In this document: piece after piece, positions 49,211-54,278 of the stretch | Layout of the letters: each line of letters opens with the position of its first letter | Numbering within the stretch: the stretch's first letter is position 1 | Assembly: GCA_965215005.1 (NCBI GenBank) | Contig: CBDCCZ010000049.1 | Location: 64,001-128,000 of the forward strand | Reading direction: 5' to 3' | Length of the DNA stretch: 64,000 nt | Source: Kofleriaceae bacterium | Lineage (GTDB): Bacteria; Myxococcota_A; Polyangia; Haliangiales; Haliangiaceae | Notes under the pieces: model-generated | The model's input: only the letters and a program-made list of their open reading frames with translations | Told to the model about the DNA's origin: nothing | Database searches by the model: none | Position numbers and translations under genes: made by a program

Positions 49211-50542
49211 CTAGGGACTCCGCGTGATGTACTCCCCGAGCTCGGCCGCCGACAGATCGACGCTTGGATCGATGAGCGGCGCGCTGCGGCGCCCATTGAG
49301 CGACACCGCCACCTCTGCCCACACGCGCACCTCGCGATGACCTCGCGACGCAAAATCCGCGGCGATGCGGCGCGCGAGCTGGTGCACCATGCCCGGCTGG
49401 ATGCTCATCATCTTCTCTTGTCGGGGCGTTAGGTACTCGCGCGGATACACCGTCCATTCGCCCGTCGCAGTGGTCACGTGGAAGCGCGCGTTGCCGGCCT
49501 TCTCAGCGACCATCACCTTCCACGACCACCGCATACCCTGCTCGGTCCACAAGACGTTGCCGGGATAGAGGAAGTGCCGCAGCGGCACGAGGAGCTGCAG
49601 GGCGAAGTGCGCGGTGAGCGCGACGGCACCGGTGCGGTGGCGCCAGGTGATGCGCGGTTGTGCAACCGCCGCTAAAGGCATCAGTGGCGCGTTGCGTCGT
49701 GGCCAACTCGGCGGGAAGAACAGCGTCGCGTTGGCGATCATCAGCCACGGAAACAATCCCAGCGAGAATATGCGGAACGTCGCGAGGTGGAATATCACCG
49801 CGGCCGCAAAGGCAAGTGTGCGGGTGCGTCGCCACGACAGCGCGGCCGGCAGAAGCAAGTCGAACACGGCCGCAGACCAGCTCGCCGCATAGGCCATCCA
49901 TTGCTCGCGCAAGAGAGCTCCGAGCAGCGGAATATCAGAGCTGGCAGCAAACCAAATGCGCAGCGGCTGCGCCTGCAGCAGCCAGTCGGCGTTGAGCTTG
50001 GCGACGCCGGCGAACACGTAAACCAGCCCCACCTGCGCCCGCAGCACCCAAAGACACCACCGCGGTGCGACGGCGACGCCGCGTCCAAGCGGCATGAACA
50101 CCAAGAGCAGCGCGAGGATGCTCACCAAGTAATAGTGATTGAGGTAGTTCGTCTGATCGAGCAGCTCCACGTACGTGAAGCCGAGGAAGAATAAAGCTGT
50201 GCTCGCTCGCCACCACACACCAGCGGCGATGCATACCGCCAAGCATCCCAATGCTGCGAAGTGAACGTACATTCCCCAGTCCGGCCACGGCGAGAGCCAC
50301 TCGAAGCCGTGATAGGGAAACCACATCGACGGCTCGATGTAGAGCTGGGCGATCCAGCCATACGCAAAGAACCGCACCACGCCCACGAACATGAGCGCGC
50401 CGAACGCAACCCGCCACGCGACCATGGAGGCAGCATCGATGGGCTCGAGAGCACGCTCCAGAAGTCGCCGAGGACGTCTAACAGCCGGCAGCAGTGACCC
50501 TCCACTCTTGGCGTCGAGCTCCGCCGCAGGCGCGGAGCTCAT
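49211..50542 (-). CDS. HTTM-domain membrane protein (vitamin K-dependent gamma-carboxylase-like)
   Basis: WRVAFG, YLNHYYL, VYVFAGVAKLNADWL, FHL...LGLFPW, WTEQGMRWSWKVM and SLNGR...LIDP motifs. Confidence 0.88.
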   Translation of the reverse strand: MSSAPAAELDAKSGGSLLPAVRRPRRLLERALEPIDAASMVAWRVAFGALMFVGVVRFFAYGWIAQLYIEPSMWFPYHGFEWLSPWPDWGMYVHFAALGCLAVCIAAGVWWRASTALFFLGFTYVELLDQTNYLNHYYLVSILALLLVFMPLGRGVAVAPRWCLWVLRAQVGLVYVFAGVAKLNADWLLQAQPLRIWFAASSDIPLLGALLREQWMAYAASWSAAVFDLLLPAALSWRRTRTLAFAAAVIFHLATFRIFSLGLFPWLMIANATLFFPPSWPRRNAPLMPLAAVAQPRITWRHRTGAVALTAHFALQLLVPLRHFLYPGNVLWTEQGMRWSWKVMVAEKAGNARFHVTTATGEWTVYPREYLTPRQEKMMSIQPGMVHQLARRIAADFASRGHREVRVWAEVAVSLNGRRSAPLIDPSVDLSAAELGEYITRSP

Positions 50543-50550
50543 TAGACTGC

Positions 50551-51630
50551 TCAGTCACCGTCACTGTCACCGAAGGTCGGCGTGAGCCCCAAGACGCCGG
50601 CGACATCGACAACGTGCAGGTTATAGAGGGTCTTGGCGCACGCGAAGGCCGCCTCGACCTCGGTCGGCGAGGACACGACCGCCTCTTCCAACGGGGGCAA
50701 AATCGCCTCGAGTGCGGCGTTGCAACGCTCGTAGGTGGCAAGAACCTCGGCATCGAGCTGGGGATCGAGGCCGCGAACCGCGCTGCTAAAGCTCGTTCCA
50801 CTGCCTTCGCCTAAGCTCGCGGTGTAGACAGCCAGCGCACCCTCGAGTGCAAGCCCGGCGTCGCTGAGCGAGGCGTGAGCATACGGCGACTCCACGGCCT
50901 GCGGCTGCGGCTGACCGCCGTCGCGCTTACCCAGCGGCTTTGCGAGCTTCATGCTCTCGATGTTGGCGAGGCCACCAAACAGCGCGTTGGCTACCGCGTT
51001 GAGCGCCATCGACAGCGCATCGTAGGTGCCACTGCCGTCGCCGGCGAGGATGAGCTCGCCGCGAAAGTCGCCGCCTTCGGGCTCCCACGCGCGCAGCAGC
51101 GCCTCGACGCGCTCATCGATGGCGCGCGCCACCGCCGCGGCGTAGGCGCATGCGCGCGGCTCGACAAGACGATCGGCACGCGCGAATAGGAGATACTCGA
51201 GCGCCGGAAAGCCTTTGCGGGTGACACCGAGATTGCCGACGTAGGCGTCATCGATCGGAGTGACCTGGTCGAGCTCATCGTCAATGTCGCCCGGGCGTGG
51301 GGGCCAGAAATCCAGCGCGGCGACGATCCGCAAATCGGTGGCTGGGCCGAAGCGAAGTGCTTCGGCGCGCTTCCACGGCCCCCGCGCATCTCGCCACGCC
51401 TGGCGCGCCGATTCCACCGCGGCCGCATCATCGGGCTTCTCGCACAGCGATTCCACGGCCATTGCTAGCGCTGTGGTGACCGGCGGCAACTCGCGATAGG
51501 TCGGCAGAATAACGCCGTCCGTGAGGTCGATGAGCAGCTGGCGACGGCTATCCGGATGACCGCTCGCGCCACCACTGCTCGAGCAACCGCCGCTCATCAA
51601 CACGAGCAAGCACAACCATCGCCAATTCAT
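50551..51630 (-). CDS. Imelysin-family lipoprotein (His-less variant)
   Basis: Lipobox SGG-C, ARQAW...FGP, KGFPALEYLLF, C-terminal LGLTPTFGDSDGD. Confidence 0.85.
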   Translation of the reverse strand: MNWRWLCLLVLMSGGCSSSGGASGHPDSRRQLLIDLTDGVILPTYRELPPVTTALAMAVESLCEKPDDAAAVESARQAWRDARGPWKRAEALRFGPATDLRIVAALDFWPPRPGDIDDELDQVTPIDDAYVGNLGVTRKGFPALEYLLFARADRLVEPRACAYAAAVARAIDERVEALLRAWEPEGGDFRGELILAGDGSGTYDALSMALNAVANALFGGLANIESMKLAKPLGKRDGGQPQPQAVESPYAHASLSDAGLALEGALAVYTASLGEGSGTSFSSAVRGLDPQLDAEVLATYERCNAALEAILPPLEEAVVSSPTEVEAAFACAKTLYNLHVVDVAGVLGLTPTFGDSDGD

Positions 51631-52997: not shown

Positions 52998-54200
52998 TCA
53001 CTCAGGCAAATCGACACTGACGTTTTCGAGACCAATGGCCAGCCCTGCCTCGACGAGCAGGTCAGCCTGATCATAGAGCGCATTGACCGCCGCCTCGACC
53101 GTCTGCTGGCCAGCGGCGCCGCCGGCATCGATGGCGTTGTCGAATGGCACGGGAATCGCGACGATTGCCTCGAGAGAGGCCAATAGCGCCGCATCCACCC
53201 GTGCCGCCAATGCGGGATCCGCTTGTCGCACGAGTTGATCGATACCGACTCCGTCATACCACTCATACCCTCCAACCCAGACGTTCTGAATGCCCAGAGC
53301 GTTTGCAAGAAAGTCATTGTGCGTGTTGTCCGAGAAGCACGAGTGCTCGTCTTCTTGATCGCGAGTCTGGAGTGCGACGTCCATTCGCTCGGAAGCGAGC
53401 TCGCCTTTGCTGAGAATGCCAGCGCCGCTGAGCATGCGTGCAAGGGCCTCGTCGGCTGGCTGCGCGAGGAAGGACTGCCGATAGCTGCCGCCTGGCTGCC
53501 ACTGGGCCACCACGCCTCCCAAATCCTCCACTAGCAACTCAGTGATCGTCTGCAGATACTGGCCGCGGCGATCGCCGCTTGGGGCGGTGGCCTCGGCACC
53601 GACGAGGTAGTCGGTAAAGGGCCGGCTGCCAGGGCCATCTTCGGAGAGGTCCTGCCCCCACAGCAGAAACTCGATAGCGTGATAGCCGGTGGAGATCGCC
53701 TTGTCCTCTTCGAACGCCGCGCCGATCCCGGTCACGTCGCCCATGGCGCCTTCGTTGAGGCCGGCAAGGTTTGCCTTGCTGATTTCGACCGTCTCATCGT
53801 TGACGAGCCCGACCGCGGGCGCGCCCTCGACATAATCGATGTAGGCCTCGTCGAGCGGCCACGCATTGAGCCGCGCCTCGGGGCCATCGTCGTCATCGAT
53901 GGGCCCGCCGTAGAAGCGGAAGGCCTCGGTCTGGCCGTAGGCGAAGCGCGCATCGAGCCACGCGCGCTTGGCGCGTTCATGGGTGCTCGGGCTGGGAGCG
54001 GCGACGAAAATGGCGACCGCTTCCTGCAGATGCTCGGCCTTGGCGAGTGCATCGGAGGTGCTGACGAGGACCAACTCGGCGTAGCCCTCCACGACCTGCT
54101 CCTCGGTCACGTGCCCCGCCATACCGTCGGAATCCATGGCGGTATCGCTGCCGCAGGCAGGGAGAAGGGCAGCAGCGCAGATAAACCAGTAGCGTGACAT
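52998..54200 (-). CDS. Imelysin/IrpA-like iron-regulated lipoprotein
   Basis: Lipobox LPA-C, QTEAFRFYGGPID, NAWPLDEAYIDYV, TGYHAIEFLLWGQD and DEHSCFSDNT motifs. Confidence 0.92.
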   Translation of the reverse strand: MSRYWFICAAALLPACGSDTAMDSDGMAGHVTEEQVVEGYAELVLVSTSDALAKAEHLQEAVAIFVAAPSPSTHERAKRAWLDARFAYGQTEAFRFYGGPIDDDDGPEARLNAWPLDEAYIDYVEGAPAVGLVNDETVEISKANLAGLNEGAMGDVTGIGAAFEEDKAISTGYHAIEFLLWGQDLSEDGPGSRPFTDYLVGAEATAPSGDRRGQYLQTITELLVEDLGGVVAQWQPGGSYRQSFLAQPADEALARMLSGAGILSKGELASERMDVALQTRDQEDEHSCFSDNTHNDFLANALGIQNVWVGGYEWYDGVGIDQLVRQADPALAARVDAALLASLEAIVAIPVPFDNAIDAGGAAGQQTVEAAVNALYDQADLLVEAGLAIGLENVSVDLPE

Positions 54201-54261
54201 TCAAACTCTCCTTGAACGGTTGCAGCAGCAGCAGATGCCGCGCTGCCTACGCTACATGAGT

Positions 54262-54278
54262 TTGAAAATAGATTTCAA
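54262..54278. promoter_or_regulatory. Fur-box-like AT-rich inverted repeat upstream of the imelysin operon
   Basis: TTGAAA-ATAGA-TTTCAA within an AT island. It overlaps a possible - strand promoter TTGAAA-N18-TAGCGT. Confidence 0.7.

Follow-up and report, generated by a model that had tools for sequence, protein, structure and literature searches.

An imelysin/di-haem operon of a Kofleriaceae bacterium with a vitamin K carboxylase-like HTTM protein in place of DUF1513

Ever since the HTTM domain received its name, it has been asked what vitamin K carboxylase homologues do in bacteria, and the sole characterised bacterial homologue cited in the accessible sections of the literature examined is a natural-product enzyme. 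The question arises again for a four-gene operon on the minus strand (49211-54200) of the window, i.e., the whole stretch of 64 kb of DNA that was analyzed, in which such a homologue is encoded behind two imelysins and a di-haem protein. The features of this locus are:

54262-54278, no strand: palindrome TTGAAAATAGATTTCAA, located ca. 60 nt ahead of the first start codon (ATG) and predicted to be a Fur-like operator responding to iron
52998-54200, minus strand: imelysin-1 (P0001), 400 amino acids, an acidic IcmP/IrpA-type lipoprotein (Pfam Peptidase_M75, 7e-73)
51627-52994, minus strand: DHOR/DUF1111 di-haem lipoprotein (P0002), 455 amino acids (Pfam DHOR, 2e-92)
50551-51630, minus strand: imelysin-2 (P0003), 359 amino acids, a His-less IPPA-type lipoprotein (Pfam Peptidase_M75, 5.5e-47)
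50554..50589, minus strand: final 12 codons of imelysin-2, an acidic, flexible C-terminal tail ending in TPTFGDSDGD
49211-50542, minus strand: membrane protein with HTTM and VKGC lumenal domain (P0004), 443 amino acids, a homologue of the GGCX core

The intergenic gaps of 3, -4 and 8 nt given in the initial annotation were re-measured and stand, and the gene identities that it proposed (a GxHxxE imelysin, a di-haem protein with two CxxCH motifs, a His-less imelysin and HTTM) are upheld by Pfam and by the motifs. Its statement that the operon encodes no transporter was confirmed as well by the Pfam search. All three periplasmic proteins contain a lipobox cysteine (LPAC, VAGC and SGGC). Imelysin-1 has a pI of 4.07 with 66 D+E versus 20 K+R, contains the motif GYHAIE, which corresponds to GxHxxE of the ICMP/IrpA type, and matches IcmP of P. 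aeruginosa (PDB 7xrx) with an E-value of 8e-68. Imelysin-2 contains GFPALE without the histidine and belongs to the GxxxxE or IPPA type, following the division of imelysin subfamilies given in the available part of PMC3143127. Its AlphaFold model has a pLDDT of 92.4, which drops to 66 in the last block, so that the tail is modelled as flexible. The di-haem protein reaches a DHOR Pfam score of 310.6 bits, and its CxxCH motifs at residues 94 and 337 are both invariant in 8 sequences; among solved structures no homologue was found beyond the cytochrome c motif. According to Pfam, the operon is flanked by genes for an ABC-F-type ATPase and a PAS/HisKA/REC hybrid kinase, neither of which is conserved beside other operons of the same type.

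In the described operon, the fourth slot is filled by DUF1513 (bioRxiv 072470), which is also the fourth gene of DHOR operons in 8 metagenome loci. In the source genome no match to PF07433 (DUF1513) was found, and DUF1513 lay beside imelysins in 0 of 23 loci of the phylum searched by tblastn. As the fourth gene is HTTM rather than DUF1513, the operon is a variant of the known one and not a strict member, and we describe it with high confidence as its HTTM-for-DUF1513 form. Furthermore, an unrelated di-iron FA_hydroxylase holds the slot in 17 of the 19 HTTM-less cassettes, with the ornithine-lipid hydroxylase OlsE as its nearest, weak NCBIfam match (7.6e-7). Its in-frame fusions, to a signal peptide as well as to a TonB receptor, suggest that the His boxes of this enzyme are probably on the cytoplasmic side, and a protein substrate shared with HTTM is therefore not obvious. 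The last component of imelysin/di-haem systems proves to be interchangeable, being a propeller protein, a GGCX-like enzyme or a di-iron oxygenase.

The operon is preceded by the AT-rich palindrome TTGAAAATAGATTTCAA, the sole match at up to one mismatch in the window, for which shuffles expect 0.08 matches and at least one was found in 7 of 100 shuffles. Only two exact copies exist in the 6.2-Mb assembly, the other one being located at the 5′ end of feoA-feoB, and two copies with one mismatch lie directly upstream of bfd-bfr. The assembly-wide number of sites at up to one mismatch, 7, is about the chance level, and only the placement of the sites is telling. Of 8 other type-A loci, 6 have a similar palindrome in front of imelysin-1, and a canonical Fur-box-like site is present in the locus L001. 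The palindrome, initially noted as Fur-box-like, thus behaves like an iron-regulon operator by its copies at feoAB and bfd-bfr and by the similar sites in relatives, and we infer that the operon is repressed by iron. A Fur gene (PF01475) was not found in the 92.8%-complete assembly, although each of the 12 genomes examined from the same bacterial family has one. For the IcmP-type operon, Fur regulation is described in the accessible part of Xu et al. (2011; PMC3143127). In addition, a Riemerella cluster of TonB-dependent receptor, gamma-carboxylase, imelysin and hypothetical protein shows values of 2.1-3.1 for WT-Fe/WT+Fe (PMC5609570, Table 4), and the iron link suggested for the HTTM-imelysin cassette is thereby borne out for a type-B version, which is induced by iron restriction in Riemerella.

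The HTTM protein matches the Pfam families HTTM (PF05090; 1e-69, 235.5 bits, cut-off 27.7) and VKGC_lumenal_dom (PF22777; 1e-40, 139.3 bits), and phmmer aligns its residues 25-433 to residues 49-491 of human GGCX with an E-value of 1.4e-31. In a Foldseek search with its AlphaFold model (pLDDT 91), the matches at E≤0.001 were 16 GGCX chains only (TMq 0.64-0.83), followed by a next match at E 0.2, and no transporter was found below E 0.2. A comparison with the catalytic residues of GGCX had been proposed at the outset, and it shows them to be retained. The residue equivalences were mapped by hand from the phmmer alignment. Lys218 as the catalytic base, Asp263 as its partner and the residues of the naphthoquinone and CO2 pocket (V210, W223, F286, F294, F299, M402 and H160) are all kept. 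Across the 41 HTTM sequences of alignment A1, no variation is seen at K182, D228, N135, H136, V174, W187, F251, F259, F264 and M344, which correspond in this order to human K218, D263, N159, H160, V210, W223, F286, F294, F299 and M402. In the human enzyme, according to the accessible parts of the sources, these residues deprotonate KH2, form the naphthoquinone pocket, trap CO2 and bind the Glu carboxylate (bioRxiv 10.1101/2025.02.09.637231; PMC12647623). The CO2-trapping residues also line the quinone site, and their conservation is therefore no proof of carboxylation. In the Glu-binding pocket, N135 and H136 are invariant, human Y395 is replaced by M337 and N158 by L134; human K217 corresponds to A181. 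The linker of the HTTM proteins contains four invariant residues that are new relative to GGCX (R322, E334, R338 and K348). As to the supply of the cofactor, the genome contains menA (181 bits, cut-off 102) and three VKOR-family genes.

In the available descriptions, the solved GGCX structures show a claw of two lumenal subdomains, PBD-1 and PBD-2, and earlier work placed propeptide binding at Pro495-Arg513, with a W501S mutant impairing the binding of free propeptide. The alignment of the 443-residue HTTM protein reaches human residue 491, and only 10 further residues follow in the protein. The remainder of the lumenal domain beyond this point, where propeptide binding is placed, is therefore missing. 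By the end of the phmmer alignment, the propeptide-binding exosite of GGCX is not kept.

The conservation of HTTM beside imelysin genes, which was the second point to be checked, holds widely. An imelysin lies within 1.6 kb of HTTM in 52 of 56 loci, and in two of the four misses the contig start cuts the locus; in a sample of 151 genomes of the phylum, an imelysin lies within 500 nt in 37 of 47 HTTM rows. The window-type operon recurs in about 10% of the sampled genomes of the phylum, and the pairing spans records from Myxococcota, Bdellovibrionota and Bacteroidota. According to tblastn and the Pfam assignment of the neighbors, the constant partner is the His-less imelysin, and this in two types of cassette. 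The second, receptor-type cassette has the order DUF4856-imelysin-HTTM-TonB receptor, comprises 41 HTTM loci and is devoid of DHOR. A siderophore/FecA-like TonB receptor is present in 41 of the 56 HTTM loci, and the window type and 7 further HTTM loci contain neither a receptor nor biosynthetic genes. In the locus L196 the HTTM-imelysin-2 pair is divergent from imelysin-1 and DHOR, and in L191 the HTTM-imelysin pair is likewise kept together apart from them. No published description of this pairing was found. It bears on imelysin/di-haem systems and gives the enzyme family a concrete candidate partner together with a condition, iron limitation.

The retained catalytic residues and the near-constant adjacency suggest that HTTM likely acts on the imelysin next to it. 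Our preferred reading, which is tentative and which we would call well possible rather than probable, is that HTTM carboxylates the neighboring imelysin-2 in a reaction that depends on menaquinol and O2. With its active site predicted at the periplasmic face, by homology with GGCX, whose active site is ER-lumenal, it would consume menaquinol, O2 and CO2 and would carboxylate acidic residues of the His-less imelysin lipoprotein, its constant neighbor, which would strengthen metal binding. In this reading HTTM would be a carboxylase, more than a quinol oxygenase alone, and imelysin-2 is its putative substrate. The carboxylation site may be the flexible, Asp-rich C-terminal tail of imelysin-2. 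The narrower form of the proposal, in which a genuine menaquinone-dependent protein carboxylase creates malonate-type chelating residues from Asp or Glu residues of the His-less imelysin, perhaps from those of the D-x-D tail at its C-terminus, is more doubtful. If true, it would provide the first carboxylated-residue metalloprotein of bacteria and would suggest metal capture as a role of protein carboxylation before clotting in animals. An action of HTTM on imelysin would also give the vitamin K carboxylase family a testable bacterial job.

The tail was compared across loci. All 40 HTTM-adjacent imelysins have a lipobox, and all 40 end in GDND or D[NS]DGD. The DGD end is also found in imelysin-2 where DUF1513 is the fourth gene (L225, L226, L228, L236, L240 and L242) and in two loci without a fourth gene (L170 and L175); among imelysins far from any HTTM, 21 of 39 end in GDxD. 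The 14 EfeO/M-like imelysins of the phylum (L107-L120) are without an acidic tail. By the criterion used, no positions separate HTTM-linked from DUF1513-linked imelysin-2 (13 versus 4 sequences). The partner imelysin shares its acidic C-terminal tail with imelysins that have no HTTM neighbor, and the tail is not HTTM-specific.

The main rival explanation is that HTTM is no protein carboxylase but a quinol-linked redox partner that oxidizes menaquinol at the periplasmic face, with or without epoxide formation. The electrons or an oxygen intermediate would alter the imelysin-held iron, e.g., from Fe(III) to Fe(II) for FeoB, or would feed oxidant to the di-haem peroxidase. We consider this rather unlikely. 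The invariant quinone pocket and catalytic lysine fit it, the slot can be occupied by another O2-activating membrane enzyme, the FA_hydroxylase, and the exact operator is common to feoAB and the window operon. Furthermore, Tyr395 of the Glu pocket is replaced and the propeptide-binding part is absent, and a Leptospira orthologue reportedly epoxidizes vitamin K while test peptides are not carboxylated. However, no VKGC homologue is known to hand electrons to a metal, and there is no variation at the equivalents of N159 and H160, by which GGCX holds the carboxylate of its substrate, or at the new basic linker residues R322, R338 and K348. The known operon, moreover, has in this slot DUF1513, a periplasmic propeller without a known redox cofactor.

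A second alternative, which we regard as improbable, is that HTTM modifies a small molecule or lipid, e.g., a chelator or other ligand imported by the TonB receptor or a membrane lipid, and that the imelysin is only the periplasmic binding protein of the pathway. For MloH, the one bacterial homologue that is characterized, the accessible texts give a PKS-NRPS intermediate as the substrate, the FA_hydroxylase enzymes act on lipids, and most HTTM loci carry the TonB receptor mentioned above. This is opposed by the window type and the 7 loci without receptor or biosynthetic genes, and by the near-universal neighbor of HTTM being an imelysin, not the receptor or DUF4856.

The initial suggestion of a permease slot, and with it a role of HTTM as inner-membrane permease or passive anchor, is very improbable: neither cassette type encodes another integral protein of the inner membrane or another importer, but the fold of HTTM matches GGCX only, its enzymatic residues are invariant in the 41 sequences, and a soluble propeller occupies the slot in the known operon. 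Equally remote is the other initial suggestion, that HTTM connects the di-haem DHOR to the menaquinone pool: both genes are part of the window operon and both proteins would sit at the periplasmic membrane face, but HTTM stays with the His-less imelysin in the 41 DHOR-less receptor-type loci and in L196, DHOR operons run equally with DUF1513, and no locus lacks both DHOR and imelysin in a manner that would favor DHOR as the partner.

Among known systems, the EfeO-like/DUF1111/EfeO-like/DUF1513 operon, exemplified by PA4370-PA4373 of P. aeruginosa with IcmP and by the operon found cofit in a mutant-fitness study (bioRxiv 072470), has the same order of GxHxxE imelysin, DHOR and His-less imelysin. 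Its imelysin-2 ends in DGD as in the HTTM form, whereas the fourth gene differs. The EfeUOB/M systems, as described in the available part of Xu et al. (2011; PMC3143127), share a periplasmic imelysin-fold protein, a haem peroxidase-type partner and iron control. However, the window operon has no EfeU/Ftr1 permease and no cupredoxin domain, and the di-haem DHOR replaces the DyP-type EfeB. The type-B cassette, e.g., RAYM_09779-09794 of Riemerella anatipestifer, has the HTTM-imelysin pair in common with the window operon, but contains a TonB receptor and DUF4856 without DHOR or imelysin-1, and its imelysin tail ends in GDND, not DNDGD. In the tree, 30 of 32 type-B HTTM sequences group in a clade of their own with a support of 99/99.

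Carboxylase chemistry is described for two relatives of HTTM in the accessible parts of PMC12647623, PMC12186529 and bioRxiv 10.64898/2026.08.19.745780, in which GGCX carboxylates protein Glu and the VKDC-like bacterial homologue MloH of malonomycin biosynthesis an aspartyl residue. MloH, compared by description only, resembles the window protein as a bacterial HTTM/VKDC homologue with such chemistry, but it is encoded in a PKS-NRPS cluster and its substrate is a small-molecule intermediate, whereas the window operon has an iron-uptake context, a candidate protein substrate and no biosynthetic genes. Finally, the HTTM transmembrane core and the first lumenal subdomain match human GGCX (26-27% identity, TMq up to 0.83), but HTTM would use menaquinone as its quinone, and a Gla-type propeptide would be absent from any substrate, which would be a lipoprotein.

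The operon is encoded on the minus strand and comprises four genes, given here from its upstream end.

52998-54200, minus strand: imelysin-1 (P0001), 400 amino acids, Imelysin/Peptidase_M75 (Pfam, 7e-73)
51627-52994, minus strand: di-haem protein (P0002), 455 amino acids, DHOR/DUF1111 (Pfam, 2e-92)
50551-51630, minus strand: imelysin-2 (P0003), 359 amino acids, Imelysin (Pfam, 5.5e-47)
49211-50542, minus strand: HTTM protein (P0004), 443 amino acids, HTTM (Pfam, 1e-69) and VKGC_lumenal_dom (1e-40)

The tight coupling described in the initial annotation was found, with intergenic gaps of 3, -4 and 8 nt. 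Imelysin-1 has a pI of 4.07, carries the motif GYHAIE and matches the P. aeruginosa imelysin IcmP (PDB 7xrx) with an E-value of 8e-68. The di-haem protein has CxxCH motifs at residues 94 and 337, and imelysin-2, with the motif GFPALE, is of the His-less IPPA type (Xu et al., 2011, PMC3143127). A lipobox cysteine is present in all three of these proteins. None of P0002, P0003 and P0004 has a specific NCBIfam model. The operon is flanked upstream by an ABC-F-type ATPase gene and downstream by a PAS/HisKA/REC hybrid kinase gene, neither of which is conserved beside other operons of this type. The 39-nt gap between the HTTM and kinase genes holds a promoter-like site, and no terminator-like site was seen in it. 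Elsewhere in the window, an ORF beside a RecQ helicase gene (57935-59056, plus strand) matches baeRF family 10/acVLRF1, bacterial families resembling archaeo-eukaryotic release factors.

Residues 25-433 of P0004 align with residues 49-491 of the human vitamin K carboxylase GGCX (phmmer, E 1.4e-31). An AlphaFold model based on an alignment of 41 HTTM sequences reached a pLDDT of 91 and a pTM of 0.89, and a Foldseek search of the PDB with this model matched 16 GGCX chains (TMq 0.64-0.83, E 1e-20 to 2e-11), while no other entry scored below E 0.2. This fold lends no support to the permease slot which had been suggested for the HTTM gene. The residues named by the structure papers (bioRxiv 10.1101/2025.02.09.637231; PMC12647623), with the roles described there, were mapped from the printed phmmer alignment.

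Human GGCX residues and their counterparts in P0004
K218 (base): K182
D263 (partner of the base): D228
N159/H160 (substrate carboxylate, CO2): N135/H136
V210, W223, F286, F294, F299 (pocket for naphthoquinone and CO2): V174, W187, F251, F259, F264
M402 (CO2 trapping): M344

Every mapped residue is invariant in the 41 sequences, so the catalytic comparison on which the initial annotation had placed weight came out in favor of a GGCX-like enzyme. P0004 differs from GGCX in having Met for Y395, Ala for K217 and Leu for N158, as well as new invariant residues (R322, E334, R338, K348) in the linker, which lines the substrate pocket in GGCX. Furthermore, it ends at about human residue 500, so that the remainder of the lumenal domain is missing; cited earlier work assigned propeptide binding in GGCX to that remainder (Pro495-Arg513, Trp501). 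A naphthoquinone cofactor appears to be available in the host, as its 6.2-Mb assembly (62 contigs, 92.8% complete) encodes menA (181 bits, cut-off 102) and three VKOR-family proteins; MqnA was not found in it. The assembly contains two further, weak HTTM-domain matches (C42:175933-176739, 57 bits; C44:173883-174281, 51 bits), neither of which is close to an imelysin gene. In a search for HTTM-imelysin fusions two longer homologues were found, neither with PF09375, which is weak evidence either way.

The conservation of HTTM beside imelysin genes, on which the initial proposal also depended, was borne out in 52 of 56 HTTM loci, where an imelysin gene lies at most 1.6 kb away. These loci, 39 from one-genome-per-species contigs and 17 from relatives, amount to 55 distinct ones because L009 and L070 are one contig, they include related genomes which are not independent, and their gene starts are approximate owing to a simple longest-ORF and GC3 script. 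Two of the exceptions (L025, L034) start at the HTTM gene, and in the other two (L078, L081) no imelysin was detected. A TonB-dependent receptor is found nearby in 41 of the 56 loci, DUF4856 in 32 and DHOR in 8, with DHOR and receptor never occurring together. Two cassette types can be distinguished: type A has the order imelysin-1, DHOR, imelysin-2, HTTM as in the window, and type B the order DUF4856, imelysin, HTTM, TonB receptor, or, in Myxococcaceae/Archangiaceae records, imelysin, short DUF4856, HTTM, receptor. Three relatives (G004, G008, G012) have both. No solved homologue of DUF4856 was found, nor any paper naming it. In a maximum-likelihood tree one clade (99/99) holds 30 of the 32 type-B HTTM proteins; the nine type-A proteins fall outside it without resolution, and two long branches (L037, L081) could not be placed. 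Of 151 genomes sampled evenly from the phylum, 55 have an imelysin and 34 an HTTM protein of the window family (profile of the 41-sequence alignment, E<=1e-30). An imelysin gene lies within 500 nt in 37 of the 47 HTTM rows, which leave out three fragment rows of two genes, and type-A spacing (imelysin-1 2.5-2.8 kb away) was found in 15 sampled genomes including that of the window.

The same sample contains 40 imelysins distant from HTTM, of which one runs off a contig end. GDxD ends are present in 21 of the 39 complete ones, and the surroundings were taken for 19 of these, the remaining two being at contig ends. In 17 of the 19 loci (L145-L160, L163) an FA_hydroxylase-family gene (PF04116) stands directly beside the imelysin gene, between it and the receptor gene; of the other two, L161 is truncated and L162 lacks such a gene. 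Membership of the family was confirmed by Pfam for 8 of 11 proteins tested, and the three His boxes are invariant. Since no FA_hydroxylase gene occurs in the 56 HTTM loci, HTTM and this di-iron membrane oxygenase are alternatives in type-B cassettes and never found together. Such an exchange speaks for O2-dependent enzymatic activity in this slot and against transport. In 8 of the 9 long ORFs that were tested, however, the oxygenase is fused in frame to the TonB receptor through a signal-peptide-like segment, which would turn its His boxes towards the cytoplasm, away from the side on which HTTM is predicted to be active. The fused ORFs come from different genomes (L148, L149, L152, L154, L155, L156, L158, L159) and encode about 1000-1100 amino acids, e.g., L155:6550-9666, with a receptor part consisting of Plug and barrel; it is odd that an inner-membrane enzyme should be joined to a receptor of the outer membrane in this way.

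Each of the 40 imelysins adjacent to HTTM terminates in GDND (type B) or in D[NS]DGD (type A and the Flavobacteriales locus L037), with D355 and D357 invariant. The imelysin-2 model has a pLDDT of 92.4, and its last block one of 66 without secondary structure. This acidic tail is absent from the imelysin-1 proteins and the EfeO/M-like imelysins, and no imelysin was retrieved from the PDB when the 35 C-terminal residues of imelysin-2 served as the query. It was taken at first as a substrate handle, since MloH of malonomycin biosynthesis carboxylates an aspartyl residue and other oxygenases hydroxylate peptide Asp in GDGDG cores (PMC12186529). A handle specific for HTTM is ruled out, as the tail also occurs with DUF1513 ([AL]DGD in imelysin-2 of L225, L226, L228, L236, L240 and L242), with FA_hydroxylase (the same GDND end as in HTTM-linked imelysins) and in two imelysin-2 proteins without a fourth gene (DGD-type end). 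By the criterion used, no alignment column separated 13 HTTM-linked from 4 DUF1513-linked imelysin-2 sequences. The tail is thus a trait of the imelysin subfamily which does not single out HTTM, though it may still be the site of action of the fourth component.

As a mechanism we tentatively propose, as quite possible, that HTTM would carboxylate the His-less imelysin at the periplasmic face. This is suggested by the invariance of the GGCX reaction residues, including those holding the substrate carboxylate and CO2, by the sole constant extracytoplasmic neighbor being a lipoprotein of acidic character whose flexible end is rich in Asp, and by the precedent for carboxylation of Glu and Asp in proteins. 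The main rival, a menaquinol-linked redox role of HTTM without carboxylation, is somewhat less likely; in its favor are the exchange for an oxygenase in other cassettes, the absence of the propeptide-binding part and the loss of Tyr395. An action on a small molecule or a lipid is improbable. A permease or anchor, disfavored by fold and alternation alike, is very hard to credit, and so is an HTTM protein wiring DHOR to the menaquinone pool.

The Fur-box-like palindrome proposed in the initial annotation is present upstream of the operon, and copies of it occur at further iron-related genes of the assembly.

54262-54278: palindrome TTGAAAATAGATTTCAA, upstream of the operon
C6:16036-16052 (L041:4036-4052): second exact copy, start of feoA-feoB
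C4:219529-219585 (L040:2529-2585): two copies with one mismatch, 40 nt apart, immediately in front of a gene pair for a bfd-like ferredoxin and a bacterioferritin (bfd-bfr)

TTGAAA-N5-TTTCAA occurs exactly twice in the whole assembly, upstream of the operon and at the 5′ end of feoA-feoB. Five more sites have one mismatch, the three not at bfd-bfr being near unrelated genes. As the 7 sites with at most one mismatch are about the chance expectation (0.08 per 64 kb in shuffles), the weight rests on their placement and not on their count. Jointly, the copies at the operon, feoA-feoB and bfd-bfr outline an iron regulon. The region upstream of imelysin-1 was also searched in eight other type-A operons. 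L005 has two exact copies, though its genome is AT-rich, L066 and L071 have copies with one mismatch, L065, L074 and L067 copies with two, and L072 has none. L001 carries GATAATGATAATTGTTATC, which we take to be similar to the E. coli Fur box. A Fur-family gene (PF01475) was not found in the assembly of the window, which encodes one Rrf2-family protein; this absence is likely an assembly gap, because such a gene is present in all 12 genomes of the same family that were searched and in 19 of the 21 searched overall. Repression of the operon by iron via a Fur-like protein is therefore a prediction. In a Riemerella Fur study (PMC5609570) a TonB receptor, a 'vitamin K-dependent gamma-carboxylase', an imelysin and a hypothetical protein were all induced by iron restriction. 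A table of that study is the only trace of a link between HTTM and imelysins found in the literature; 'HTTM domain' with iron led to a single, unrelated paper, and in the accessible text of Xu et al. (2011) the terms HTTM, carboxylase and TonB do not occur.

Finally, metagenome contigs were scanned with a DHOR alignment. Among the best 80 of at least 589 relatives, HTTM was found in 17 loci (13 downstream in the operon, 2 cut at contig ends, 2 divergent) and DUF1513 as the fourth gene in 8, a ratio which is biased as these loci are the most similar to the window DHOR. In 2 of the 80 imelysin-2 is followed by unrelated genes, in many others it was not recognizable with crude ORF calling, and FA_hydroxylase occurs in none. 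In L196 (2133-7368) an imelysin-2-HTTM pair is divergent from imelysin-1 and DHOR. L206 (2883-7436) and L212 (5732-10279) have a TonB receptor between imelysin-2 and HTTM, so that a hybrid row of imelysin-1, DHOR, imelysin-2, TonB receptor and HTTM is seen.

The operon type itself is known, which limits the initial claim of an undescribed system to the uncharacterized HTTM version. The described operon consists of EfeO-like, DUF1111, EfeO-like and DUF1513 genes, which cofit in mutant-fitness data and for which ferrous-iron uptake was proposed (bioRxiv 072470). The three occupants of the fourth slot, DUF1513, HTTM and FA_hydroxylase, need not have a common substrate. No DUF1513 gene was found in the assembly of the window, and within the phylum such genes occur in 20 of 301 genomes. 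Unlike in the described proteobacterial operon, they do not adjoin imelysin genes there (0 of 23 loci, L082-L104, by tblastn). Judged by sequence, the firm reading is that the window contains a known iron-uptake-type operon in a recurrent, uncharacterized version: a predicted enzyme with the GGCX core and its catalytic residues is the dedicated neighbor of the His-less imelysin, and HTTM stands where the described operon has DUF1513.
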